Of a stretch of DNA of 64,000 nucleotides, positions 291 through 58,956 are shown in pieces (within the stretch, counting starts at the first letter, position 1; each line of letters begins with the position of its first letter). The notes under the pieces are model-generated. The model ran no database searches. It worked only from the letters and a program-made list of their open reading frames with translations, and had not been told where the DNA came from. Origin of the DNA: Eledone cirrhosa (taxonomy: Eukaryota); the NCBI GenBank assembly GCA_964016885.1, contig OZ024754.1, positions 13,144,001-13,208,000 on the forward strand, read 5' to 3'. The position numbers were made by a program, and so were the translations under genes.

Positions 291-379
291 ACACACACAC
301 GTGTGTGCATATGTATATAATATATATATATATTTATTTATTTATATATATATATGTGTGTGTGTGTATATGTATTTTA

Positions 380-443
380 GGTATCTAGTCTTTAATGCGC
401 CGAAATACCAACGATAATCAGCAGACTACTAATGAGGACATTT
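380..443 (+). ncRNA. Candidate non-circularly permuted hammerhead ribozyme (core mutated to CUAAUGA in this copy)
   Basis: GGTAT-C-TAGTCT / AATGCGCC-GAAATACC / AGACTA-CTAATGA-GGACATT; stems I, II and III can all pair. Confidence 0.5.
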
Positions 444-920
444 TATCTCTTGGTCTATTTTTATTCATATGTCCATGTTCGCAATAAGGCAGCACGCCAT
501 TCTTCATTCACATATTTTTTCCCTTCGCTGTGGTTCATATTTTTTCTGTCACCTTACTGCTATCACCTTTTCTCTCTCCTTCACCTGTTGACTTCCTCAA
601 CTCCCGCTGCTGGTCTGGTCACTCACTCTCGGCTGGCCCCTTCCTCACACTTTCACTCATCCCTTCTCTGCTTCTCCCCCTCTCTCTCACTTCCTCCCGT
701 CTGACCTGCTTGAATTTCTTTCCTCTATCAATCTTCTCGCGGCTCGGGCGTATCTATTTCTCCTCGTCAATTTGATTTGTCAGACTTAAGCCCACAGGAT
801 TCATTGACTTGTCTCTATTTTCCTCTCTTTGCTTTGCATTACTACCACGTGTTTGTTTCCTTCCCTCTGTGTTCCCACTGTCCCGATAACTTAATTGAGT
901 TATCGCTCGCACTGATTTTA

Positions 921-984
921 GGTATCTAGTCTTTAATGCGTCGAAATACCAACGATAATCAGCAGACTACTGATGAGGACATTT
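921..984 (+). ncRNA. Candidate non-circularly permuted hammerhead ribozyme (intact core)
   Basis: GGTAT-C(926)-TAGTCT, then AATGCGTC-GAAATACC, then AGACTA-CTGATGA(970-976)-GGACATT. Stem I 6 bp, stem III 5 bp, stem II GG-A-CATT/AATG-CG-TC. Confidence 0.6.
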
Positions 985-1004
985 TATCTCTTGGTCTATT
1001 TTTA

Positions 1005-1080
<76 letters not shown>

Positions 1081-1644: not shown

Positions 1645-1862
1645 AAGAGATGTCAACATGAATGGACTCGTTATTTTTATCTGAAGATATTTTTTTCCAA
1701 TTCCATCCCGCCCGTCCCCTCAATCTATTTTATTTCTCATTCTTTCTTCTGATGAAGGACAAGCGTCCGAAACGTTAAGATCCTCTTCCTGCTATATCAA
1801 GCGTTAACCTAATATATACCTTCAATATACTGTACCGATTGTATTGTTATTTGTTTACTTGC
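1645..1862 (+). mobile_element. PLE 3'-end/pLTR fragment carrying a minimal hammerhead
   Basis: Reverse-complement copy at ~53310-53527; contains the HHR at 1745-1780. Confidence 0.65.
1745..1780 (+). ncRNA. Minimal type I hammerhead ribozyme (PLE type)
   Basis: TCTT-CTGATGA-A-GGAC(AAGC)GTCC-GAAACGT-T-AAGA: stem I TCTT/AAGA, stem II GGAC/GTCC, palindromic ACGT stem III. Confidence 0.75.
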
Positions 1863-12285: not shown

Positions 12286-13063
12286 CATCTTTATTTCATC
12301 AAGGGAAATATCTTATATTCTTTGATGATCTCGTAGTTGGCTTTCGATAAATTTTTCAATAGGGGGAGTGTTTAGCTGTATTGTACAATAGTTAGCTTTA
12401 TTTAGACTTGCTGCCGTCAAGACGCCAACTCCTATAAATGATTTCAAATAGATCAACGGTATTGTATATGGATATTAAGAATGAAATCAAGGACGTGTGT
12501 GTAAGTATAACAAATATACCATTTAGTGTCGGTGTTCGTTCAAAATCCGCAAAGTAGTATTGGATCTGAGTCAATGTATTGTTTATTGTTTCTTTCTTTT
12601 GTATGCAACTTATTCCAAAAATAATCAAATTGAGTCATTCCTCTGATGCCACAGTCAGCATCTACTGGAATGATAGATCAGTGAAGATAATGTGCAATTA
12701 GATTATATTAATGCCGAGTTATGCATGACGTTGTGGTTGTGTCGTTTCTTTCATAACTGCATCATTTCGTGGCATCTTCGGTAAATAGGGTTTGCTACCA
12801 TAGCCCCCGTGTTGTACAATATCTTACACGGGAATTTTGACACAAGGAAATTAGCTAAAGCCCATATATATATATATATAAATAAATACAATATCGGAGA
12901 AAGCTTTTTAGCGATACTCCGGCCAAATTCCAACTCACTCAACAAACATTAGCAAATAAGTGATTATATTCCCAATTATGCCTTCGGGGTGCTAACTAAA
13001 AGTATTGCGTAGAAAATTGGCTGTATTATTTCATATGAGACATATCTAATATATCTCTTCTAT

Positions 13064-13097
<34 letters not shown>

Positions 13098-13099
<2 letters not shown>

Positions 13100-13297
13100 C
13101 GAAGGAAAAGTGGTAAGTAACCAGGTGGACCATAACGCACCAAAGTACTCAATACTTAGGGTAGTAGAGTGGGTAATAGGAGTAAGTAAGACCCCGACGG
13201 CTGAGCTCAAGCCGTTTCGACGGCTAATTCTGTACTGAAATTACAGAATTAGCCGTCGAAACGGCTTGAGCTCAGCCGTCGGGGTCTTACTTACTCC

Positions 13298-13299
<2 letters not shown>
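13098..13299 (-). mobile_element. Fold-back PLE-end insert, family A
   Basis: Long arm plus short inverted arm, apex ~13235-13241, (TA)n on both sides. Carries the HHR 3' half CCGTC-GAAACGGCT-TGAGCTC-AGCCGT-C-GGGGTC. Confidence 0.8.
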
Positions 13300-13330
<31 letters not shown>

Positions 13331-13332
<2 letters not shown>

Positions 13333-13573
13333 ACTAGAAATTGATTGACATATATATATATATTTAAAATAAACACATTAAACAATCACAGGGGATAAAT
13401 TGTCCCCTGTGATTGTTTCATGTGTTTATTTTAAATATATATATATGTCAATCAATTTCTAGTTGATATAAAATGCTCGGATCTATTCATTGGAATCTTT
13501 GAACTTATTCTACGGTGGATATGGCGCATGTCTCGGACATGACTCCCTTAATTTAATTAAATTTAATTAATTT

Positions 13574-13575
<2 letters not shown>
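13331..13575 (+). mobile_element. Fold-back insert (arms 13331-13395 / 13403-13465 plus unique tail)
   Basis: Near-perfect inverted repeat with 7-nt loop, between (TA)n tracts. Confidence 0.7.
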
Positions 13576-13624
<49 letters not shown>

Positions 13625-13628
<4 letters not shown>

Positions 13629-13713
13629 AAATGGCGTGCTGCGTGGTTGCAAATGGGTTATATATGAATAAAATTAGTTCTTCATCAGTGATCTTCCGTT
13701 CATCGCTTTAAAG

Positions 13714-13717
<4 letters not shown>
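13625..13717 (-). mobile_element. Diverged fragment related to the 375-1008 element, with permuted-HHR remnants
   Basis: Minus strand: TGATCTT-TAAAGCGAT-GAACGG-AAGATCA-CTGATGA-AGAAC...TTTTATTCATAT...GCAGCACGCCATT, the latter matching 457-502. Confidence 0.6.
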
Positions 13718-13780
<63 letters not shown>

Positions 13781-13817
13781 GTATATATATACGTATATAT
13801 ATATATATATATATATA

Positions 13818-14075
13818 GGAAAAGTATGACCCCGACGGTAGAGCTCAAGCCGTTTCGACGGCTATTTCTGGACTAGATTTTAGAGGCTCCTGATGAGGCG
13901 GAGGGGATATTCACTTCAGTTTGGAGCCTTTAAAATCTAGTCCAGAAATAGCCGTCAAAACGGCTTGAGCTCTACCGTCGGGGTCATACTTTTTCCTATT
14001 TCCCACTCTACTATCCTAAGTATTGAGTACTCTGGTGCGTTATGGTCCATCTGGTTCCTTACCACAATTCCTTTG

Positions 14076-14078
<3 letters not shown>
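13818..14078 (+). mobile_element. Fold-back PLE-end insert, family A, retaining the CTGATGA core (13890-13896) in its loop
   Basis: Arms 13818-13890 / 13923-13998. CTGATGA-GGCGG...CCGTC-(G/A)AAACGG...CCGT-C gives the family's HHR with a long stem II insertion. Confidence 0.8.
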
Positions 14079-14163
<85 letters not shown>

Positions 14164-14668
14164 TTTACAAAATGAAGAGAAAATATATCCTTTTGAAATC
14201 AGATGGTTCTTTTGATATACCCTGTATATATCCTATTGGAATGGCTTCTACAAATATAGGACAGTTCCAGGAACCTGAAATCTATATCAGCATATAAATA
14301 AGCGGCTGTTAATGAACGATGGAACTGAGAATTTGCTAATATTAATTATTGGCCCCAAAAGAACTTTAATTGGAGAAGTCCTTCTACTGTATTGATGAGG
14401 CGGAGGAGATATTCCTTTCAGTTTGGAGCCTTTAAAATCTTTGGGGAATATTCAATTAATTAAAATTACAACCTATGTTTAAAGAGCGATAACTATTAAA
14501 TTAATTAAAAGTTGTTAAATCCCGAATGAAGATTTGGACCTGTTAAATACTTAAATTGTAATTAAAAATTAGAATTTAAGAGAATATTCTGTGATTACGG
14601 GAATAGAGTTAAATCGTCAACATTCTAAAGATGTCAAAATGTAAACAAAAACAGAATGGAATATATTT

Positions 14669-15746
14669 AATTGTTTCTACATTTAGCACGAGGCCAGCAA
14701 TTATCCCAGTGCATTACTGGTACTTTATTTTATCGACCCCGTAAGGATGAAAGGCAAAGTTGACCGCGACGGGATTTGAACTCAGACCGTAAAAGGACGT
14801 AACTATGCTCCAAAGCATGGCGTCCGACCCTCTACCGGTACTGCCATTTCACTGAGAATATAATATATTCAGTAAGAAGGGTGGTGGGTTGGCAGTAATC
14901 GGTAGAGCGTCGGACAACATGCTTTGTGGCATGAAGTTACGGCCCTTTATGGTCTGAGTTAAATCCTATCAAGGTGAGCTTTGCCTTTCCTCCTTACGGG
15001 GTCGATAAAATAAAGTACCAGTAACGTACTGGTAATTGCTGGCCTTGTGCGTAAATAAAAAAATCATCATGTAATGAGTAAGATTGATAATTGTTTCTAC
15101 TTTTGGCACAAGGCCAGCAATTACCCAGTACATTACTGGTACTTTATTTTATCGACCCCGTAAGGATGAAAGGCAAAGTTAACCTCGGCGGGATTTGAAC
15201 TCAGAATGGCAAGGGCCGTAACTCTATGCGTCAAAGCATGGCGTCCAACCCTCTACTGATACTGCCAAATAATGTAATATGATGTTAGTAATATTGTATA
15301 GACACACACAGACACACACACATACCGATATGAAACATACACAGACACACACACACACGGACATGAAACATACACACACACACATAAAACATACACAGAC
15401 ACAAAGCATATGCATAACCACGCACACACTCTCACGCACACAAAACACGATCACACACACACGGACACACGCGCGTGCGTGGACACAAAACGTTCACACA
15501 AACACGCACACACTCTCACGCACAAAAAATACGCACACGCAACACAAAACACACTCTCACGTACACAAAACACAATCACACACACACACACACAGTAACA
15601 AAACACACACTCACACACGCAAAACACACAGACAAACACAAAATACAAAAGCACACTCATGCACACAAAACACTTCCATAAACACACACAAATACAACCA
15701 AACACACACACACTCACGCACACACACACGCGCGCACAAAACAGAA

Positions 15747-15785
<39 letters not shown>

Positions 15786-16328
15786 TACAGAGATGAAGTG
15801 AAGGTGGCACCCCGCAAATTCTTGAAATTAATAAAGGGAGGAGTGCGGGACTGTGTCCTGAATATGTTTTTTTTTTATCGCATTTGTAAAATAAGTTGGA
15901 TTGGTAAAATAAATTTGAATAAATAATTGTTTCTACTTTTGGCACAAGGCCAGCAATTATCCAGTACATTACTGGTACTTTATTTTATCGACCCCGTAAG
16001 GATGAAAGGCAAAGTTAACCTCGACGGGATTTGAACTCAGACCGTAAAGAAACGTAACTATGCTAGAAAGCATGGCGTCCAACCCCCTACCGATACTGCC
16101 AATTCACCGCACTTGAATAAGTTTGAATAAGTTTGAATAAATAATTTTTTTTTATTTTTGGCACAAGGCCAGCAATTATCCAGTACATTACTGGTACTTT
16201 ATTTTATCGACCCCGTAAGGATGAAACAAAGTTTACCTCGGCGGGATTTGAACTAAGAATGGCAAGGGCCGTAAATCTATGCGCCAAAGCATGGCGTCTG
16301 ACCCTCTACCGATACTGCCAATCCACCA
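14669..16328. mobile_element. Cluster of five tRNA-derived octopus-type SINE copies (14669-14853 -, 14878-15062 +, 15089-15268 -, 15925-16110 -, 16143-16328 -)
   Basis: A-box-like TGGCAGTATCGG, B-box GAGTTCAAATCC, shared body ACTTTGCCTTTCATCCTTACGGGGTCGATAAAATAAAGTACCAGT, AT-rich tail. Confidence 0.85.
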
Positions 16329-16710
16329 TAAATAATTGTTTCTACAAGGCCAGCAATAAATAATGAATGAATATTATGTAATTTATGTACTAAATTTCGT
16401 AACTCTTGATTAAATATCAATAATTTTATTGCTTATTTCAAGATTCACTTCTAATCTAATCTGACTGAGTTTACACTCGCAAATAAGAAGAACCAGGGCC
16501 GCTCCTAGGAGCATTGTTTCGGTTGCTGAATACAATCAGGGGTCGCTGCTTCTCTTAAAGGTCAATAGTTCTCTTCTAACTTGAGCGGGAGCGCCTTTCC
16601 ATTCTCAATTTGCATTGATCATCTGCAAAGCCGAATTGTTCTCAGAACAACTACACCAGTCTTTCGATGCGTGCAGCTGGAAGTAGTGCCCACCATTGAT
16701 GAGTAAAAAG

Positions 16711-17315: not shown

Positions 17316-17376
<61 letters not shown>

Positions 17377-17424
17377 TTGCCCCTTGACAAGTTCGGCTAT
17401 CTAAATACCAGAACTGATTTTTCA

Positions 17425-17565
17425 TTCAGTACAGAATTAGCCGTCGAAACGGCTTGAGCTCAGCCGTCGGGGTCTTACTTACTCCTATTACCCACTCTAC
17501 TACCCTAAGTATTGAGTACTTTGGTGCGTTATGGTCCACCTGGTTCCTTACCACTTTTCCCTCGC

Positions 17566-17566
<1 letters not shown>
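17425..17566 (+). mobile_element. Family A PLE-end copy, single arm
   Basis: Matches the reverse complement of 13098-13239; ends in (TA)n. Confidence 0.8.
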
Positions 17567-17656
<90 letters not shown>

Positions 17657-17660
<4 letters not shown>

Positions 17661-17830
17661 CAAAGAGGGTGTGGTAAGATACCAGGTGGATCATAACGCA
17701 GCAGAGTACTCGATACTTAGGGTAGTAGAGTGGGTAATAGGAAAAGAGTGAGGATCATGATGGCTGAGCTCCGACCGTTTCGACAGCTAGATCCGAACGC
17801 AGCTAGCTGCCGAAACGGCCGGAGCTCAGC
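17657..17830 (-). mobile_element. Family A fold-back copy (more diverged)
   Basis: Same layout as 13098-13299. Confidence 0.75.
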
Positions 17831-17846
17831 CGTCGGGGTCCTGACT

Positions 17847-17913
<67 letters not shown>

Positions 17914-27670: not shown

Positions 27671-28952
27671 AAGAAAATACATAAATATTATATATATATA
27701 TAAAAATAAAAAAGTGGAAGGGTAAACAAATGCTAACTTTCTAGACATTAATCTTGATCTACTTACTGCCTCTTTTAAACCTTATCATAAACCTAACGAA
27801 AATCTTAGATATATACACAAAGAGTCTTGCCATCCCCCTATAGTTTTTAAAAATCTTATTCCCAAAATTAGCCGTAGGATTTCTGCCTTATCTTCGTCTC
27901 TAGACATTTTTAACAAAGCCGCCCCTTATTATAATAAAGCCCTTAATAACAGCGGCTTTACAGAACAGATTAAATATTTACCTACTCCTCCCCCTAAAAC
28001 TAACCACAATAATAGGAAAAGGAAAATTATTTGGTTTACACTCCCCTTATCTCTAACTGTCAAAACTAATGTAGGAAGGAAATTCCTTGACCTCTTAGAC
28101 AAACATTTTCCTCCTAATCATAGATATTATAAGATATTTAAAAGAAATGTAGTTAAAATCAGTTACTCTTGCTGCCCATCAATGAAGTCTAAAATCACCA
28201 ATTCTAATCGTACGAGAATAAATCCAGGATGCAGTTGCAGGAAGCCGGATGAATGCCCATTACAGGGCAAATGTAATAACAAATCCGTTGTATATGAGGC
28301 CAAAGTGACACCTTTAATTAACAACCAGACATCCAGGAGTGACCGATATGTTGGCATGACTCAGGACAGGTTCAAAACCAGGTTTTATGCACATGTTGCT
28401 TCTTTTAAACACTCTGATAAAAGAACAGCAACGGCTCTCGCAAATAAGGTGTGGGAATTCAAAGATAAAAACATTCCGTACTCTATCGATTGGTCTATTT
28501 TAGACCATCAGAGGGTATACCAAAGGGGCACAAAGAATTGTTCTTTGTGTACCACTGAAAAATTTAGGATTCTACAAAACTTGAAAACCACTTCAACTTG
28601 CCCGAACTCCAAGACCGAGATCTTCAGATATTGTTCTCACCTGAAATCACATCTGATCTATAACTGGATTGACATTCCTACGATGACTCAACCACCTTGT
28701 ACTTCTTTTCTGCTCTATACGCTTTACATCCACTACGATTTGTATTACTCTCTGAACTCACTTTCTGTACTCTTATATTTTTTTCTCCCTTATCTCCCCT
28801 TATATTTAAACTGTTTCCTATGTTATTTATTTTCCTTATTCCCCCCTACTTTCTACCTTACATACCCAACTTTTTTCTACCTTACATACCCACCTTTTTT
28901 ATTTATAGATATTTATTTCTGTATGTATGTGTTGTGTATATGTGTATGTGTG

Positions 28953-28983
<31 letters not shown>

Positions 28984-29203
28984 GTATGTAATTATATATA
29001 TATGTATGCATAATTACATACAGAGTGATTTAATGTTTATTTTCATTGATTATTTGCTCTAGGAATTTGTTGAGTGCTCTAAATCAGCTATAAATATTTA
29101 TACCTTTATCTATTTATTTATTTATTATTTCTCGTATTCCTAACTATTTGTTTACCCTTCCACTTTTTTATTTTTATATATATATATAATATTTATGTAT
29201 TTT

Positions 29204-30926: not shown

Positions 30927-30970
30927 AAATGGAATAGACATTGCAATACAACGAGAGGAAACATAATAGG

Positions 30971-31010
30971 ACCACTGATGAAGTCACAGGTTGTGACGAA
31001 ATAACTTTGA
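30971..31010 (+). ncRNA. Degenerate minimal hammerhead in PLE 3' UTR
   Basis: ACCA-CTGATGA-A-GTCACA(GGT)TGTGAC-GAAA; stem III decayed. Confidence 0.55.
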
Positions 31011-32690: not shown

Positions 32691-33041
32691 GGAAAATAAG
32701 ATTGGCTGTGAAGTTGCAATTAAGGTAGCTTAAAATGGAGTGAGAATAAGAAGAAAGCAAGAACGAACGGGGGAGGGGGGGGTCCTCATCAGTTTCTTAC
32801 CTTAAGTTTTTCACACATTGCTCGGTTTGTTGTGTTTTTCGCTGTTTTCTCTTTTCTTTTTCCTTCTATTTTCCTTCCCTCCTCCTCCATTTTCCCAATA
32901 ACTTACCCAGTTATTGAACCCTCTGGGCGGTAGATATATTGTCTTTGAATCGTGGACATATCCGAAACCCCTAGTAGACAACTGATGAGGAAAACTCCCC
33001 CGTCTCTTGCTTTCTTCTTATTCTCATTCCATTTTAAGCTA
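32691..33041. mobile_element. Fold-back insert (arms 32726-32794 / 32980-33041) with a candidate permuted hammerhead at 32929-32991 (+)
   Basis: GGTA[GATATA]TTGTCT...TCC-GAAACCCC...AGACAA-CTGATGA-GGA. Confidence 0.6.
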
Positions 33042-35116: not shown

Positions 35117-36182
<1,066 letters not shown>

Positions 36183-36564: not shown

Positions 36565-36879
36565 TACATGGAACTCATTTAACCATCTTTTGATCTTATA
36601 TATATATATATATACATATACATATAGTTTTGCGAGGTTTTTTATATGAAATCGTGTGTCGAAACAGATATTGTTATATTTGGGGAGGGTCATATTTGCG
36701 TAATATTGCCAGAATTAATAACAGAACACACTCACTGTTTGGTTGGTTTTCGCTTCTCGCTGTCTTTTATATATATATATCTGCGATCTAACTTACTCGG
36801 TCCTCAATGTTGCCATTGACTGACCGGCGGTCAAAAATAATACAGATACAATATAGACAAACACATATATATATAGTTT

Positions 36880-36920
36880 ACATAAATCTTTCGTTGCACA
36901 TCTGCAACATCGTCAGTGGT
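36880..36920 (-). ncRNA. Minimal hammerhead-like motif in pLTR
   Basis: Reverse complement of 39647-39687. Confidence 0.6.
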
Positions 36921-37190
36921 GTTATATTCATTGTTCCTCCTGTTGTGTTGTATGTCTACGCCATTTTTTTTTTGTTCAGTCTGTCTATATATTTATTTAT
37001 TTATTTGCTTGTTTGTTTATCTTATTTTATTTTGTCTTCTTTGCGCATGCGTTTGCGTGTGTGTATAGTGTTATGTGTGATGTGTGACTAGTGTGTATAG
37101 TGTTGTGTCTGCTGGGTGACTAGTGTGTGTTTATGTGCTTGTGTATGTATTTATTTATCTTATTTTATTTAATTTAATTTTCTTATTTAT

Positions 37191-39101
37191 TTATACTTCT
37201 CTTAGGTCAGTGTTGTTTGTTTGGGTGTTGTTGTTGTTCCACTCATTCTTTCTGTTTAGCTTTGGTCTTCTAATTTCTATTTCACTGGCCTCTCTGATTT
37301 GCCTATCTGCTGGGTCATTCCTATGTTTAGATATTATTCTAATTTCTATGTTGTCTATGTTACAGTCATGATGTTGTCTAGCATGTTCGTATAGTACTGA
37401 CCCGTTTTTTCGTCCTTTTAGTTCCCCCCAGTGTTGGTCTATCCTTTCACCTATGCTACGAGCTGTCTCACCTATGTATGTTGTTGTCGTGTTTCTGCAA
37501 GTACCCTCTGTACATCTTATGCTATAGACTACGTTTCTAGTTTTACAGTTTATCCGGGGGTTCACCTTACATATGATACATTTCCTATTGGTACAGTGGG
37601 TTTTCTTAAAAGGGTAGGTTTTGCTGATCAGGGATTTTATGGTGGTTCCTGGCTTTTCTACCACCTTTATTTTTAAGTGGGTCTTTCTCAGGGCCTTTCT
37701 ACACTGGTTAGCTAATTTCCCTCCAGGGGTGGCGTCCACAAACATGACACTCTGATATCTCTGGTTGTCGTACCATGATGTGGCCTTCCCTATCTTATGT
37801 CTAGCCCTATCTAAGCTATTCCATGATTTGCTCCTGTATAGTGGGCAAATTCCTTTCATGTCCAGTTCTATGAGGGTCTTATACTTTTCCATGGCTCCTT
37901 CGTATACTCTGACTCTGTCTCTTTGGTTGTAGCCAGAGAACTGCATGCGGTTGATGAAGTGTTGGATGTGTCCTTCCATTTCTGTTGGGTCGCACATGCT
38001 GGACACATTCTTCATCACTCGTACCAAATCTGCGATCAGAATATTAAACTTAGCACTACTGGACATTGCTGAGTTTTTGAGTATCAGGTATTTGGAGGCC
38101 ATGGGTTTAGCATAGTGTGAGTGGAGAATTTGGGCTCTCTCGTCTATAGTGTTAATCCAGAGTTCTGTGTCTAATACAGGTAGTCTATTGTTAGGGTGTT
38201 TGGAAGGGAAGTCTATAGTTACAGTTATACTCTGGTGTATGGAATTAGCTATCTGCTGGATGCTTTCCATCGTGCTACGTTCTAAATCAAACTTGTTAGT
38301 GCTCTCTAGTGGGGGTGTTCTTATAACTATATTGATATCGTCTACATAACGAGAGTACATGATGAGGTCTATGGAGCTTTCATTAAGGAGATCTTTAAGT
38401 CTCCTTTCCCACCATACCATGAAAAAGTTGGCAACATCGCCAGCTATGCTGACGCCGATGGCTGCTCCCTCATTTTGGGTGTAGATTTTCTCATTGAACT
38501 TAAATATGTGGCCCTTTAGGGTAGTTTTGATACTAGCCCCTATTGCATGTGCGACCATTTTTCTTACCTGATCAGTGTTTTGGGGGGTCCGTATAGCTTT
38601 GGTCCACCCAATCCACCTTCCTATGGGAGTCTTTTTAGCCATTGAGGTTATGGTGGGGGGTCTACCTCTTATAGGTCTACTAGGGCAGAAACATCTAAGG
38701 TCATGGCTGTCTAGGTAGTCAGTGTCGTAGGTAAGTCTAAGTAGGAGGCCCAGTTCGTCTGTGTCGACGTCGCAGAACTCCACCTCACTCTCAATGATCA
38801 TCTCCACACATCTTTTCACATCAAAATCAATGTTAATGGATGGGTACAGTGACACCACATCCATGCTGCCTATTATGCAGTTGGATAGGCTCCTGTTTTT
38901 GTTGCACTCACTGATTCTGCTGAGGAGGTCCTCTGTACTTTCACATACATCTGGGGACATCTTGATTATGGGGCGTATAACCATTGAGAGGAAGTAGGAG
39001 ATCCTGTAGTTGCTAGCTATATTAGCTCCGCATACAGGTCTTGTTGGTGGTCCTATTGTCGGGTCGTCGACTGTCTTGTGGTCTTTGCGGAGCCCATACA
39101 A
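37191..39101 (-). CDS. PLE reverse transcriptase + Cys-rich linker + GIY-YIG endonuclease (5'-truncated; frame open to the ~39134 junction)
   Basis: GSMDVVSLYPSI, YTQNEGAAIGVSIA, YSRYVDDI, LPVLDTELW, CTNRKCIICK..C, NVVYSIRC...YIGETARSIGERIDQH. Confidence 0.92.
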   Translation of the reverse strand: MYGLRKDHKTVDDPTIGPPTRPVCGANIASNYRISYFLSMVIRPIIKMSPDVCESTEDLLSRISECNKNRSLSNCIIGSMDVVSLYPSINIDFDVKRCVEMIIESEVEFCDVDTDELGLLLRLTYDTDYLDSHDLRCFCPSRPIRGRPPTITSMAKKTPIGRWIGWTKAIRTPQNTDQVRKMVAHAIGASIKTTLKGHIFKFNEKIYTQNEGAAIGVSIAGDVANFFMVWWERRLKDLLNESSIDLIMYSRYVDDINIVIRTPPLESTNKFDLERSTMESIQQIANSIHQSITVTIDFPSKHPNNRLPVLDTELWINTIDERAQILHSHYAKPMASKYLILKNSAMSSSAKFNILIADLVRVMKNVSSMCDPTEMEGHIQHFINRMQFSGYNQRDRVRVYEGAMEKYKTLIELDMKGICPLYRSKSWNSLDRARHKIGKATSWYDNQRYQSVMFVDATPGGKLANQCRKALRKTHLKIKVVEKPGTTIKSLISKTYPFKKTHCTNRKCIICKVNPRINCKTRNVVYSIRCTEGTCRNTTTTYIGETARSIGERIDQHWGELKGRKNGSVLYEHARQHHDCNIDNIEIRIISKHRNDPADRQIREASEIEIRRPKLNRKNEWNNNNTQTNNTDLREV

Positions 39102-39646
39102 GGGTGGTATGCCATTGTTAGACGCCTGGAAGTTGTTGGGGGAACTAAAAGGACGAAAAAACGGGTCAGTACTATACGAACATGCTAGACAACATCATGA
39201 CGGTAACATAGACAACATAGAAATTAGAATAATATCTAAACATAGGAATGACCCAGCAGATAGGCAAATCAGAGAGGCCAGTGAAATAGAAATTAGAAGA
39301 CCAAAGCTAAACAGAAAGAATGAGTGGAACAACAACAACACCCAAACAAACAACACTGACCTAAGAGAAGTATAAATAAATAAGAAAATTAAATTAAATA
39401 AAATAAGATAAATAAATACATACACAAGCACATAAACACACACTAGTCACCCAGCAGACACAACACTATACACACTAGTCACACATCACACATAACACTA
39501 TACACACACGCAAACGCATGCGCAAAGAAGACAAAATAAAATAAGATAAACAAACAAGCAAATAAATAAATAAATATATAGACAGACTGAACAAAAAAAA
39601 AAATGGCGTAGACATACAACACAACAGGAGGAACAATGAATATAAC

Positions 39647-39687
39647 ACCACTGACGATGTTGCAGATGTGCAACGAAAGATTTATGT
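39647..39687 (+). ncRNA. Minimal hammerhead-like motif in pLTR
   Basis: ACCA-CTGACGA-T-GTTGCA(GATG)TGCAAC-GAAAGATTT-A-TGT. Confidence 0.6.
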
Positions 39688-39903
39688 AAACTATATATAT
39701 ATGTGTTTGTCTATATTGTATCTGTATTATTTTTGACCGCCGGTCAGTCAATGGCAACATTGAGGACCGAGTAAGTTAGATCGCAGATATATATATATAA
39801 AAGACAGCGAGAAGCGAAAACCAACCAAACAGTGAGTGTGTTCTGTTATTAATTCTGGCAATATTACGCAAATATGACCCTCCCCAAATATAACAACATA
39901 TAC

Positions 39904-40047
<144 letters not shown>

Positions 40048-46910: not shown

Positions 46911-47090
46911 CTGCTTTTGTTATTATCATCAATATAGTTTATTTTATATTTTTATATCTTCATTGTTAAATTAGTCTTGCCATTGTGCACTTTTACTCGA
47001 CCTTATTGTAAACCCCCACTCTCCCTGTCTTTCTATTGTCCCCTACATGTCGGCCCTGGTGGCTAATAAGTGAAATCATCATTATTATTA

Positions 47091-47270
47091 TTGGCGGTAT
47101 CGGTAGAGGGTCGGACGCCATGATTTGACGTATAGAGTTACGGCCCTTGCCATTCTGAGTTCAAATCCCGCCGAGGTTAACTTTGCCTTTCATCATAACG
47201 GTGTAGATAAAATAAAGTACCAGTAATGCACTGGGTGATTGCTGGCCTTGTGCCAAACGTAGAAACAATT
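47091..47270 (+). mobile_element. Octopus-type SINE
   Basis: Shared SINE sequence with B-box GAGTTCAAATCC. Confidence 0.85.
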
Positions 47271-47414
47271 ATTATTATCATTAGATTTGATGTTGCTGTC
47301 GTTCGTGTTGAAGTCGTTTATTTATAACCCCCCACCCCACCCCCTCCCAATAGTGTTACAGTTATCGGGTCTTGGTGTATGAGGCTTCTATCAGTGACGC
47401 CCAAAGGAAAATGG

Positions 47415-47449
<35 letters not shown>

Positions 47450-47452
<3 letters not shown>

Positions 47453-47640
47453 AACCAGTAAGACCCCGACGGCTGAGCTCAAGCCGTTTCGACGGCTAAT
47501 TCTGGACTAGAATTAGCCGTCGAAACGGCTTGAGCTCAGCCGTCGGAGTCTTACTGGTTCCTATCACCCACTCTACTACCCTAAGTATTGAGTACTTTGG
47601 TGCGTTATGGTCCACCTGGCTCCTTACCACATTTCCTTCG

Positions 47641-47643
<3 letters not shown>
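47450..47643 (+). mobile_element. Family A fold-back insert
   Basis: Short arm 47450-47503, long arm from 47509; (TA)n flanks. Confidence 0.8.
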
Positions 47644-47724
<81 letters not shown>

Positions 47725-47969
47725 GAAAGTATAGAAATTATTGTGATCATGAAGCCAACAGTATTTCATAATATATAAGTGACTATAACGTCAAAATGGA
47801 AAAATAGTTAACGTAAGATGTGGGAAAATAATTCAAACTGAATTTTAAAAAATCAAGACATAGATTTATCCACAGAATTTTGTGAAATCCAGGAAATAAT
47901 CAATAGAGCCTTAACTCTGAATAAAATAAAGTTTAAATACTCATCCTTCAATTTGGAAAAACTTCAAAT

Positions 47970-48702: not shown

Positions 48703-49062
48703 AGAGATTTTGAGTTTATGTTGGTTGTATATCAACACCTATGTATGCAGGCTGGAGCACTCGACGAAGTGCGCAGGTTGGTTTTGTTACTCCGGAGTAG
48801 TGTAAAATAAAGTTAAATAAAAGTCAAATGATTAAAATTTAGCTTCGTTTATTACTGCTATATATATTTCAGCGACAGCCATCTTTGGCTGTGACCTCTT
48901 CAGGCAGTTTGAATTAGTATGGTATAGACAAATTCAGTTACTTGTCTATACCATACTAATTCAAACTGCCTGAAGAGGTCACAGCCAAAGATGGCTGTCA
49001 CTGAAATATATATAGCAGTAATAAACGAAGCTAAATTTTAATCATTTGACTTTTATTTAACT

Positions 49063-49070
<8 letters not shown>
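48703..49070. mobile_element. Family C fold-back insert (arms ~48804-48931 / 48942-49069)
   Basis: Near-perfect inverted repeat with 10-nt loop plus left tail. Confidence 0.8.
48965..49019 (+). ncRNA. Type I hammerhead ribozyme (family C); mirror copy 48854-48908 (-)
   Basis: ACTGC-CTGAAGA-GGTCACAGCCA(AAGA)TGGCTGTCACT-GAAATATATAT-A-GCAGT. Confidence 0.85.
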
Positions 49071-49117
<47 letters not shown>

Positions 49118-49119
<2 letters not shown>

Positions 49120-49309
49120 AACGAGTAGGACCCCGACGGCTGAGCTCAAGCCGTTTCGACGGCTAATTCTGCGTCCAGAATTAACCGTCGAAACGGCTTG
49201 AGCTCAGCCGTCCGGGTCCTACGCGTTCCTATTACCCACTCTACTACCCTAAGTATTGAGTACTTTGGTGCGTTATGGTCCACTTGGTTCCTTACCACAT
49301 TTCGTTCGT

Positions 49310-49312
<3 letters not shown>
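49118..49312 (+). mobile_element. Family A fold-back insert
   Basis: Same layout as 47450-47643. Confidence 0.8.
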
Positions 49313-49374
<62 letters not shown>

Positions 49375-49469
49375 CATATATATATATATAAACATATATA
49401 TATATAAACATATATATATATAAACATATATATATATAAACATATATATATATACATATATATATAAAC

Positions 49470-50638: not shown

Positions 50639-51156
50639 ATACTTGTTATGAAAGTCTGTATTAAAACCTAAAATGTAATACTATCGGATAGTCATGCTGC
50701 CAATAAACCATGCGCACTTGTAGAGTTTCATTTCACTTTTTTCTTATTTGTTTTATTATGGAACAGGTAATTGAAACATCGGATGAGTCATGAGACTGCA
50801 GCTTTACAGAATCACTGACTTGATTCAATAAATCATATACAACAGGACTTATTTAGATCGAGACTACTAATTATATTGAACTAATATCAGATTAAATTTT
50901 TAACTATTTTTCACAGTGAAAATGCTACGTTGAAACTAGCTTAACCGCTCAACATTTCTAAAAATACGATTCTAAAATGTCTATATATATATATAAGGTT
51001 CTTAATGTTATCTACATCCTTAGTTATTATAATTTTATTATTTTTATCTTCATTTTTATTATCGTATATCTTTGTAAGACATTAGTGTATGTAAACTCCA
51101 TATTCTTCAGAGTTTCTGGCTTGTATCTGCCGAAATTACCTCTTGTTGTTTTGATT

Positions 51157-51194
51157 GCCCTGATGAGTCCTTAATAAGACGAAACATTGTCGGC
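51157..51194 (+). ncRNA. Minimal type I hammerhead ribozyme
   Basis: GCC-CTGATGA-GTC(CTTAATAA)GAC-GAAACATTGT-C-GGC followed by AATAAA, near the 3' end of a (TA)n-flanked insert ~50637-51243. Confidence 0.85.
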
Positions 51195-51240
51195 TAATAA
51201 AAACTTTTGATGTATTAAAGGATTTTTTGTTTTACTCTCT

Positions 51241-56587: not shown

Positions 56588-57251
56588 GGCGGTGGATTGG
56601 CAGTATCGGTAGAGGGCCGGACGCCATGCTTTCCAGCGTAGTTACGTCCCTTTACGATCTGAGTTCAAATCCCGCCGAGGTTGACTTTGCCTTTCATCCT
56701 TACGGGGTCGATAAAATAAAGTACCAGTAATGCACTGGGTAATTGCTGGCCTTGTGCCTAAAGTAGAAACAATTATATTTAGGGCGGTGAATTGGCAGTA
56801 TCGGTAGAGGGTCTGACGCCATGCTTTGCAGCATAGAGTTACGGCCCTTTCCATTCTGAGTTCAAATCCCGCCGAGGTTAACTTTGCCTTTCATCCTTAC
56901 GGGGTCGATAAAATAAAGTACCAGTAATGCACTGGGTATTTGCTGGCCTTGTGCCTAAAGTAGAAACAATTATTCCTATCTCAGGTTCGTTTTGTATATC
57001 GGCACACTTCTTTAAATATAAATTTAAATATAAAATAACTGTTTCTACTTTTGGCACAAGGCCGGCAATTTTGTGTGTGGGGTCGATTAAGTCGACCCTA
57101 GTACGTTACTGGTACTTTATTTTATCGACCCCATAAGGATGAAAGGCAAAGTTAACCTCGTTTAGATTTGAACTCAGATCATAAAAGGCCATGATTCTAT
57201 GTTACAAAACATGGCGTCCGACTATCTACAGATACTGCCAATCCATCGCCC
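56588..57251. mobile_element. Three octopus-type SINEs (56588-56773 +, 56782-56971 +, 57037-57251 -)
   Basis: Shared SINE sequence. Confidence 0.85.
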
Positions 57252-57262
57252 TTGTAAAGTAA

Positions 57263-57914
57263 TCTTTATATATAAAACTGAGAATGTCTTTGTGTATGTG
57301 TGTGTGTGTGTGTGTGTGTGAGTTTGAATCCCTAAAACTCGAGAAGTACCCAACCGATTTTTATCAAACTTTACATGTGTATTATTTATGTTTCAGGGAG
57401 TGTTTTGCACATACAATTCAACTTTTTGATCTCCTAGTGCCTGCATTAGGTGAAAACTTGCGCTTTTTCAGCTTTTGGGGGGATTTTTGAGGCGTTATGT
57501 CAGACCGATTTCCTTGAAATTGTAACTATGTATTAGTCAGTCTCTTCTTCATACCTTGATCAATGAAAATCCAACTTTTTTATTGCCTAGGGCCCGCATT
57601 AGGTGAAAAACTTTATTTTTTCAGCTTTTTAGGGGTTTTTGAGGCGTTACATCTCGCCGATTTTCCCGGCAATTTCAAGGCATATTATGCACATTAAAAA
57701 AATTCATTTTCTTGATCCTCTAGGGCCCGCATTAGGTGAAAATATGTAATTTCACTGCTTCATCGAGGGAAATCTTAAAGATTATCCAGCCATCAGAGCA
57801 TTCGGTTTATTTTCTTTACATATTATCCAGGCATGCAGTTTTTCCACGATTAGGTCTGTTGGCGGCCCGCGTTCCAAAATACCTTATCCCGTGCAAGCCG
57901 GGTACCACTGCTAG
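57263..57914 (+). mobile_element. Non-autonomous Helitron-like element
   Basis: 5' A|TC start (TCTTTATATATAAAA), internal (GT)n and three GCATTAGGTGAAAA repeats, subterminal hairpin CCCG..CGGG, 3' CTAG|T. Confidence 0.75.
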
Positions 57915-57943
57915 TATAATATAATATAATATAATATAAAATA

Positions 57944-58410
57944 ATTGTTTCTAATTTTGGCACAAGGCCACCAATTATCCCAGTGCATTACTGGTACTTT
58001 ATTTTATCGAGCCCATAACGATGAAAGGCAAAGCTAACCATGGCAGGATTTGAACTCAGAACATAAAGGGTTATAACTCTATGCTGCAAATCATGGTGTC
58101 TGACGCTCTACCGATTCTGCCAATCAACCACCCTTATAATATAATATAATATAATATAATATAATATAATATAATTGTTTCTACTTTTGGCACAAGGCCA
58201 GCAAAAACCCAGTGTATTACTGGTACTTTATTTTATCAGTAATACACTGGGTAATTGCTGGTCTTGTGCCAAAAGTAGAAACAATATTTTATTGACCCCG
58301 TAAGGATGAAAGGCAAAGTTAACCTCGGCGGGATTTGAAACTCAGTCCGTAAAGGGACGTAACTCTATGCTGGAAAGCATGGCGTCTGACTCTCTACCGA
58401 CACTGCCAAT
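57944..58410 (-). mobile_element. Two octopus-type SINEs (57944-58133; 58174-58410 with internal inverted duplication)
   Basis: Shared SINE sequence with (ATAAT)n tails. Confidence 0.8.
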
Positions 58411-58956
58411 ATACTAATATAATATATAATATAATATACAAAAAAATATCCATAGTTCTATCCTGGTTTTACCATCGGTGTATATAAAAAATATAAAATT
58501 TCAAAATTCATTGTTATATATATATACCCATTCACATATATACACGCTCAGACGGTGAGGGTGGGGGATGGTGAGAGGGTGTAGGATTATAGACGAGGAG
58601 ACTGTTGCTATACGTTATTATTCTCGAGAACAAAAGAGAGATTTTAAATAGTTCATTATTACTGAGTAAACATGTTATAGTCAGATACAAATAAACACAC
58701 GTGTGTGTATGTATGTATGTATGTATGTATGTATGTATGTATGTATGTATGTATGTATGTATGTATGTATGTATGTATGTGTCTATGTGTGTATGTATGT
58801 ATGTGTGTATGTACGTGTGTATGTGTGTGTGTATATAAGTATGTGTGTGTGTGTGTATATAGGTATGTGTGTGTGTATGTATGTGTGTATATCTGAGCGT
58901 GTGTGTGTGAGTACACACACACACTCATATGTATATATATACACACACATATACAC

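Follow-up and report, generated by a model that had tools for sequence, protein, structure and literature searches.

Background

Type-SGC and type-CSG are non-circularly permuted hammerheads, described by Eckert, Friedrich, Weinberg and Weinberg in 2023 (PMC10085705). According to the available portion of that paper, which sets out a scheme of six permutations, both RNAs cleave in vitro and require a fourth helix; they were found only in metatranscriptomes and metagenomes, none of them in the genome of a known organism, and type-CSG is represented by two examples only. The type I hammerheads of canonical Penelope-like elements (PLEs) and non-LTR retrozymes have the circular order C-G-S, and some of them need two copies to cleave (accessible parts of PMC7229834 and of the preprint bioRxiv 10.64898/2026.07.22.740005). 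As far as its accessible text goes, the retrozyme preprint uses type I models only, and the portions at hand of PMC13725137 and PMC13159263 add nothing on non-circular hammerheads.

The Naiad retrotransposons target (TA)n and carry inverted 5' copies (Craig et al. 2021, PMC8557442). In the accessible portion of that paper they are reported to be without canonical hammerheads, and eight of them, among them Naiad_Ovul and Naiad_Esco, are flagged 'HHR_half_core'. In the literature searched (mostly open-access, with preprint supplements outside its scope), non-circular hammerheads are described neither from animal genomes nor from Naiads.

Here we analysed a window of 64,000 nucleotides, in which an insert at 32691-33041 contains a motif copy at 32896-32991. 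We consider it likely that this is an inactive copy of a high-copy repeat which encodes a scrambled hammerhead-like RNA, predicted to cut itself, and which is probably a non-autonomous Naiad passenger.

The insert and its relatives in the window

The insert, about 350 nt long, has a (TA)n tract on either side and folds back on itself, as a sequence-only reading of this DNA had stated: its arms (32726-32794 and 32980-33041) are inverted, with 83% identity over 69 columns. It contains no ORF. Family reads extend to about 32691, with loose ends before 32720. The features of the insert and of its relatives are collected in Table 1.

The same reading had called the insert sequence-unrelated to an element at 375-1008. 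This was mistaken: 32870-32991 matches 856-979 at 68% over 127 columns, and the homology includes the element at 35127-35675. No gap interrupts the core when the copy is aligned to 884-979 and 35549-35644, which belong to what we term family 1. Over the 61-nt core, again gap-free, 41/61 positions are identical to family 1, and 29 of the 47 positions outside the catalytic motifs are identical (binomial p 1.5e-6). The local alignment score was reached by 4 of 1000 shuffles, or by 42 of 1000 with the CUGAUGA and the pyrimidine tract excluded. All four window copies have identical spacers of 10 and 13 nt.

A descriptor for this strand order with an intact GAAA found three matches in the window (385, 926 and 35591), against 0.005 per shuffled window (1 of 200 shuffles). 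Relaxed to GA.A it found four, against 0.21 per shuffled window, with 38 of 200 shuffles giving at least one. In this comparison with shuffled sequence, proposed earlier, it takes the relaxed form to catch 32896-32991; this copy is therefore beyond chance by homology, not by the descriptor alone. Being a homolog of 375-1008, the insert is also not the independent witness it was taken for. The permuted class that it was thought to betoken, common to several Penelope-like families, did find support, and more widely than had been guessed.

Table 1. Coordinates of the insert, its predicted RNA parts and related elements in the window
Feature	Position	Strand	Remarks
Family-1 element with a 97-nt direct repeat and two motif copies (the 5' one CUAAUGA)	374-1011	+	
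Short internally deleted relative with a third stem I variant	13625-13717	-	By eye
5'-truncated inverted copy of the element's 3' part	32691-32794	-	Starts 2 nt before CUGAUGA
Pyrimidine-rich body of the non-autonomous element	32795-32895	+	Family contigs cover the body
8-bp hairpin adjoining position 10.1	32896-32916	+	1 compensatory change versus family 1
Predicted stem II 5' strand (10.1-10.6), upstream of the cleavage site	32917-32922	+	
Fourth (interaction) helix, 5' strand; partner 32968-32974	32923-32929	+	6/7 pairs in copy 32896-32991
Stem III 5' strand and predicted cleavage triplet AUA	32933-32938	+	
Stem I strand 3' of the predicted cut	32939-32944	+	6/6 pairs; 1 compensatory change versus family 1
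Stem II 3' strand (11.6-11.1)	32949-32954	+	
GAAA block (GACA in copy 32896-32991) and stem III 3' strand	32955-32962	+	
Fourth helix 3' strand, 1 nt before stem I	32968-32974	+	
Stem I partner strand and CUGAUGA core	32976-32988	+	No variant of at least 8% listed in 32976-32991, four runs
3' tail ending in (TA)n	32989-33041	+	Other copies' ends near 33037
Second family-1 element, perfect 6-bp upstream-strand stem II	35127-35675	+	

Family letters and the register of the motif

Family letters were obtained from four public runs (X1, X2, X4 and X5) of one other organism, perhaps a relative of the window's species, aligned at 80% likeness; of the query words, only 7-13% occur in these runs, none of whose pieces covers the whole stretch. 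They bear directly on how the motif is to be read. The letters quoted in the sequence-only reading are indeed present at 32929-32991, its stem I (UUGUCU/AGACAA) pairs as it proposed, and its reversed order of cleavage site, GAAA block and CUGAUGA is real. The remainder of its model, an unrelated family with GGA/UCC as stem II, GAAAC at 32964-68 and a later insertion of six nucleotides (GAUAUA), is permitted by the letters of this single copy and is contradicted by the reads. Position 32957, a C in this copy, is A in 5461/5497 of the depth in X1, 5549/5608 in X2, 89/89 reads in X4 and 95/95 in X5; position 32966 is G in 11134/11335 of the depth in X1, 10262/10463 in X2, 89/89 reads in X4 and 97/100 in X5. 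These letters thus hold in about 98-99% of the family depth. No indel of at least 8% is listed between 32881 and 33003 in the four runs, 32933-38 included, and a family consensus, the check suggested for the insertion, therefore gives neither a 6-nt insertion nor a GAAAC block, the latter being a private mutation. The GAUA(U) in question is instead the 5' strand of stem III, with 5/5 pairs to 32958-62. Stem II as GGA/UCC likewise falls to the family letters. With the changes 32920 C>G, 32950 T>G and 32954 G>T, which are in the majority in the contig runs, the two stem II strands in Table 1 form 6/6 pairs. Taken with the gap-free alignment to family 1, these data leave that model hardly credible, unless the family of the reads differs from that of the copy.

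The GAAA next to stems II and III, absent in the copy (GACA at 32955-58), is restored by the family letters, and the CUGANGA core at 32982-88 shows no variant of at least 8% in the four runs. The copy has thus lost A14, the conservation of which in hammerheads is stated in the available portion of PMC10085705, and is likely to be a point-mutated, inactive member of a high-copy repeat.

Predicted fold

From 5' to 3' the predicted layout comprises the hairpin, the first strands of stem II, the fourth helix and stem III, the cut site, the first strand of stem I, the second strand of stem II, GAAA, the second strands of stem III, the fourth helix and stem I, and finally CUGAUGA. Minimum-energy folding misses this pseudoknotted fold and was not used as evidence. 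Stems I and III have 6/6 and 5/5 pairs in all four window copies, and the NUH site, AUA or AUC (the latter in many family copies), is present with its A15.1-U16.1 pair; the predicted cut falls after 32938. Stem II formed with the upstream strand has 6/6 pairs in the copy at 35591, 4/6 in that at 926 and 3/6 in 32896-32991. When the majority letters are compared by hand with the copy at 35591, three of the stem II pairs differ on both sides. Position 11.1 (32954) is mostly A or G in the RAD reads (60 A and 4 T of 89 in X4; 77 A and 1 T of 95 in X5), so that there the 10.1-11.1 pair is lost and stem II is shorter.

The fourth helix directly abuts the upstream stem II strand, and the family change 32972 T>C turns one of its G-U pairs into G-C. 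Between the window's two families, family 1 and that of the insert, compensatory changes were counted in the hairpin (1), stem III (1), stem I (1) and, for copy 32896-32991, the fourth helix (2). The family keeps the core together with five covarying helices. Both strands of the fourth helix are tethered to stem III, so that a fold within one molecule needs a sharp turn. It is possible that two copies assemble instead, by analogy with the dimeric hammerheads of retrozymes.

The loop of the 5' hairpin reads C/U-UUA in both window families (884-905 and 32896-32916), in Naiad_Obim and in one coral-type subfamily (L048 and L086); perhaps it makes a tertiary contact or serves as a protein site. At 35635-35645 (+) the family-1 copy has an extra C between CUGAUGA and the following GG, at the junction which is open in the split form.

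Comparison with known hammerheads

The block order S-G-C of the window motif is that of type-SGC, and so was already published. The motif also shares with type-SGC and type-CSG a short linker between stems I and II, 4 nt here and typically 3 in the published RNAs, and a fourth helix that connects the two stems on their other sides. It departs from them in that their stem I, CUGANGA and stem II are taken to form one continuous block C, whereas that of the window motif is split, and in that they were taken from uncultured RNA and metagenome contigs while the motif is a high-copy animal repeat (all as given in the accessible part of PMC10085705). With its stem II strand 5' of the site, the layout therefore corresponds to SGC/CSG circularly permuted, the opening lying between A9 and N10.1. 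In its predicted form it lies outside the six permutations in that part of the paper. By analogy, the motif would work like type-SGC even though its block C is interrupted.

Type I hammerheads resemble the present case in that they too lie in the terminal repeats of small non-autonomous PLE derivatives. They have no core pseudoknots, unlike the window layout, and would be caught by standard descriptors, which would not catch the latter (accessible text of PMC7229834 and bioRxiv 10.64898/2026.07.22.740005).

Naiad 3' ends

All CTGANGA matches listed for the Naiad supplement file (54 consensus records) were read by eye, a procedure that misses motifs split by a line break. Eighteen of the 54 records end in a non-circular hammerhead by this reading: 11 in the split layout, six in type-CSG and one in type-SGC. 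No fit was seen by eye in the other 36, and several CTGANGA matches from the arthropod region of the file were assigned to none of the layouts. The split layout was seen in Bfor (stem I of 2 bp only), three Acropora records, Obim, Ovul and Esco (stem II 4/5), and in further records of part 9 (one), part 12 (two) and part 19 (one). Again by eye, Naiads from ctenophores, cnidarians, the arthropod region of the file and cephalopods thus carry the permuted layout at their 3' ends.

The intact type-CSG records comprise three from Nippostrongylus and one each in parts 13, 15 and 16. The latter three come from the nematode part of the file, and all six are well paired with a long fourth helix; one CSG record carries an extra U between A9 and G10.1. 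The S-G-C record with stem II after the core lies in part 17, the spider part of the file, and has a long insert between S and G and a fourth helix of 15 bp.

The insert shares with Naiads the (TA)n target and the inverted 5'-truncated copy (accessible part of PMC8557442), features which are not exclusive to Naiads. Its RNA layout is the same as that seen by eye at the 3' ends of the consensus records Naiad_Obim, Naiad_Ovul, Naiad_Esco and the three from Acropora, all from the same source. The insert, as noted, has no ORF, and the likeness is one of RNA layout as judged by eye. We infer a link between the insert and Naiad. No Naiad ORF (N-terminal GIY-YIG plus RT) was found within the window.

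Pairing and copy boundaries in coral-type loci

A short motif from the Acropora Naiad records led to at least 120 metagenome loci (L002-L121), with at least 122 matches in the loci listed, 18 of them outside the family. A strict site test was passed by 18 of the 122 matches listed, 10 of which have 6-7 bp to the upstream strand. In 12 hand-picked intact copies, 95.5% of 443 cells were paired, against 25-43% in slid controls, and three pairs were changed on both sides, reflecting two subfamilies.

The 5' starts of these copies were then considered. Among the matches listed, 86 of the family lie away from contig ends; after removal of three duplicates and five rearranged copies 78 remained. Relative to the predicted cut, 36 of the 78 start 1-14 nt downstream and 8 at the cut itself; upstream of it, 6 start at 1-3 nt, none at 4-22 nt and 8 at 23-61 nt, and 20 are longer. 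Fifty of the 78 copies listed thus have their starts no further than 14 nt downstream or 3 nt upstream of the predicted cut, the search pattern being blind to starts more than 14 nt downstream. The starts at 1-3 nt upstream are compatible with chance A/TA matches. In a simulation of uniform truncation the filled zone received 147 of 600 starts and the empty zone 130. Downstream, the short copies have only some 110-130 nt in common.

Such a pattern is expected from reverse transcription of the 3' cleavage product, and the wall in the boundaries at the predicted cut is likely to be a genomic footprint of self-cleavage. This wall comes from the coral-type family and would thus speak for the window's families only indirectly. 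Contrary to it, the 5' repeat of the family-1 element begins about 12 nt upstream of the cut (374 versus 385), in the zone which is empty in the coral-type family. The start of the relative at 13625-13717 (-) lies about at the predicted cut, with (TA)n blurring its boundary.

No Naiad ORF was found in loci L002-L121; a 709-aa ORF in L080 was considered as an RT and rejected, as it resembles a host receptor. A pattern for the window's own two families gave no loci in metagenomes, none in viral contigs and one in prokaryote genomes (L001), which was unpaired and was rejected as chance.

Proposed mechanism and alternatives

We propose that the four helices would together build a normal hammerhead core whose backbone is open between A9 and N10.1, and that the fourth helix would, as in type-SGC, hold the far ends of stems I and II together. 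Cleavage after NUH would fix the 5' end of the downstream RNA; the partner element, on reverse transcribing this RNA, would run off at that end and leave short insertions that start at or just after the cut.

The fold might also be real without being catalytic: a structure of hammerhead origin could bind the protein of the element, or it could stall the RT and so make the wall. An open A9/10.1 junction is without tested precedent in the literature searched, position 11.1 varies in the family 2 reads (those of the insert's family), and the hammerhead of a Poseidon element, in the accessible part of PMC11167929, was dispensable in vitro as regards cleavage and gave no reads ending at the site. 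Against a mere binding or stalling structure, however, CUGANGA, GAAA and UH are kept across phyla in unrelated sequence contexts, and the nematode Naiads have the same four helices in the intact type-CSG form. The wall, moreover, stands at the predicted bond and not at a helix end, with 0 of the 78 copies listed starting within stem III or most of the 5' strand of the fourth helix. We therefore think a non-catalytic role unlikely.

Nor does an ordinary type-SGC, with stem II drawn from the bases after CUGAUGA and the upstream pairing merely an alternative or inhibitory helix, fit the pairing well. The copies at 385 and 926 do offer 2 bp at 10.1-11.1 in this manner, family 2 could form two G-U pairs, and the spider-region Naiad record has at least three such pairs. 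These positions have 0 pairs to the bases after CUGAUGA, however, in 32896-32991, in the copy at 35591 and in all of the 18 strict coral-type copies listed (0/18 pairing 11.1 so), whereas the upstream strand gives 6-7 bp with compensatory changes; we regard the ordinary form as quite unlikely.

With the split, self-cleaving form preferred, the motif is likely a new variant of the non-circular hammerheads and the missing ribozyme of Naiads. It is probable, in our judgement, that Naiads across animal phyla and their non-autonomous passengers carry active non-circular hammerheads, among them a seventh layout in which CUGAUGA is severed from stem II, and that cleavage sets the 5' ends of most copies. 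If so, non-circular RNA permutations would be abundant in animal genomes and not a metatranscriptomic rarity, moving from uncultured RNA contigs to high-copy animal repeats, and within a single clade of transposons the CSG, SGC and split forms would be able to change into one another. The Naiads would be supplied with the ribozyme that they were reported to be without, and the hammerhead core would be seen to tolerate an open backbone between A9 and N10.1. From the boundaries, moreover, the function of PLE hammerheads could be read out in genomes, which is rarely possible; the accessible parts of the Naiad and Poseidon papers leave that function an open question. The work also gives a descriptor usable on any animal genome.

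Other features of the window

An Rfam scan of the whole window returned no hammerhead family among the best 150 of 563 matches; these 150 were of miRNA type and below gathering scores. Ordinary type I PLE-style hammerhead motifs are present at 1745-1785 (+), found by descriptor, and by eye at 51155-51200 (+) and 30970-31005 (+). A Penelope-like element at 36597-39962 (-) has a 667-aa RT frame and an 833-nt inverted repeat, its best match being an Octopus vulgaris protein (68%), and a Penelope-like 3' fragment of 421 aa lies at 27726-28991 (+). The PLE ORFs at 37191-39194 and 27726-28991 were considered as carriers of the motif and rejected; their endonuclease-like part is C-terminal and they have no such motif. 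The short relative at 13625-13717 (-) is flanked by (TA)n, has a deletion of about 14 nt and ends in a tail matching family 1. Several interleaved short fold-back repeat families occur at 13042-14163, 14648-16357, 17317-17911, 47077-47736, 48804-49402 and 56588-58438.
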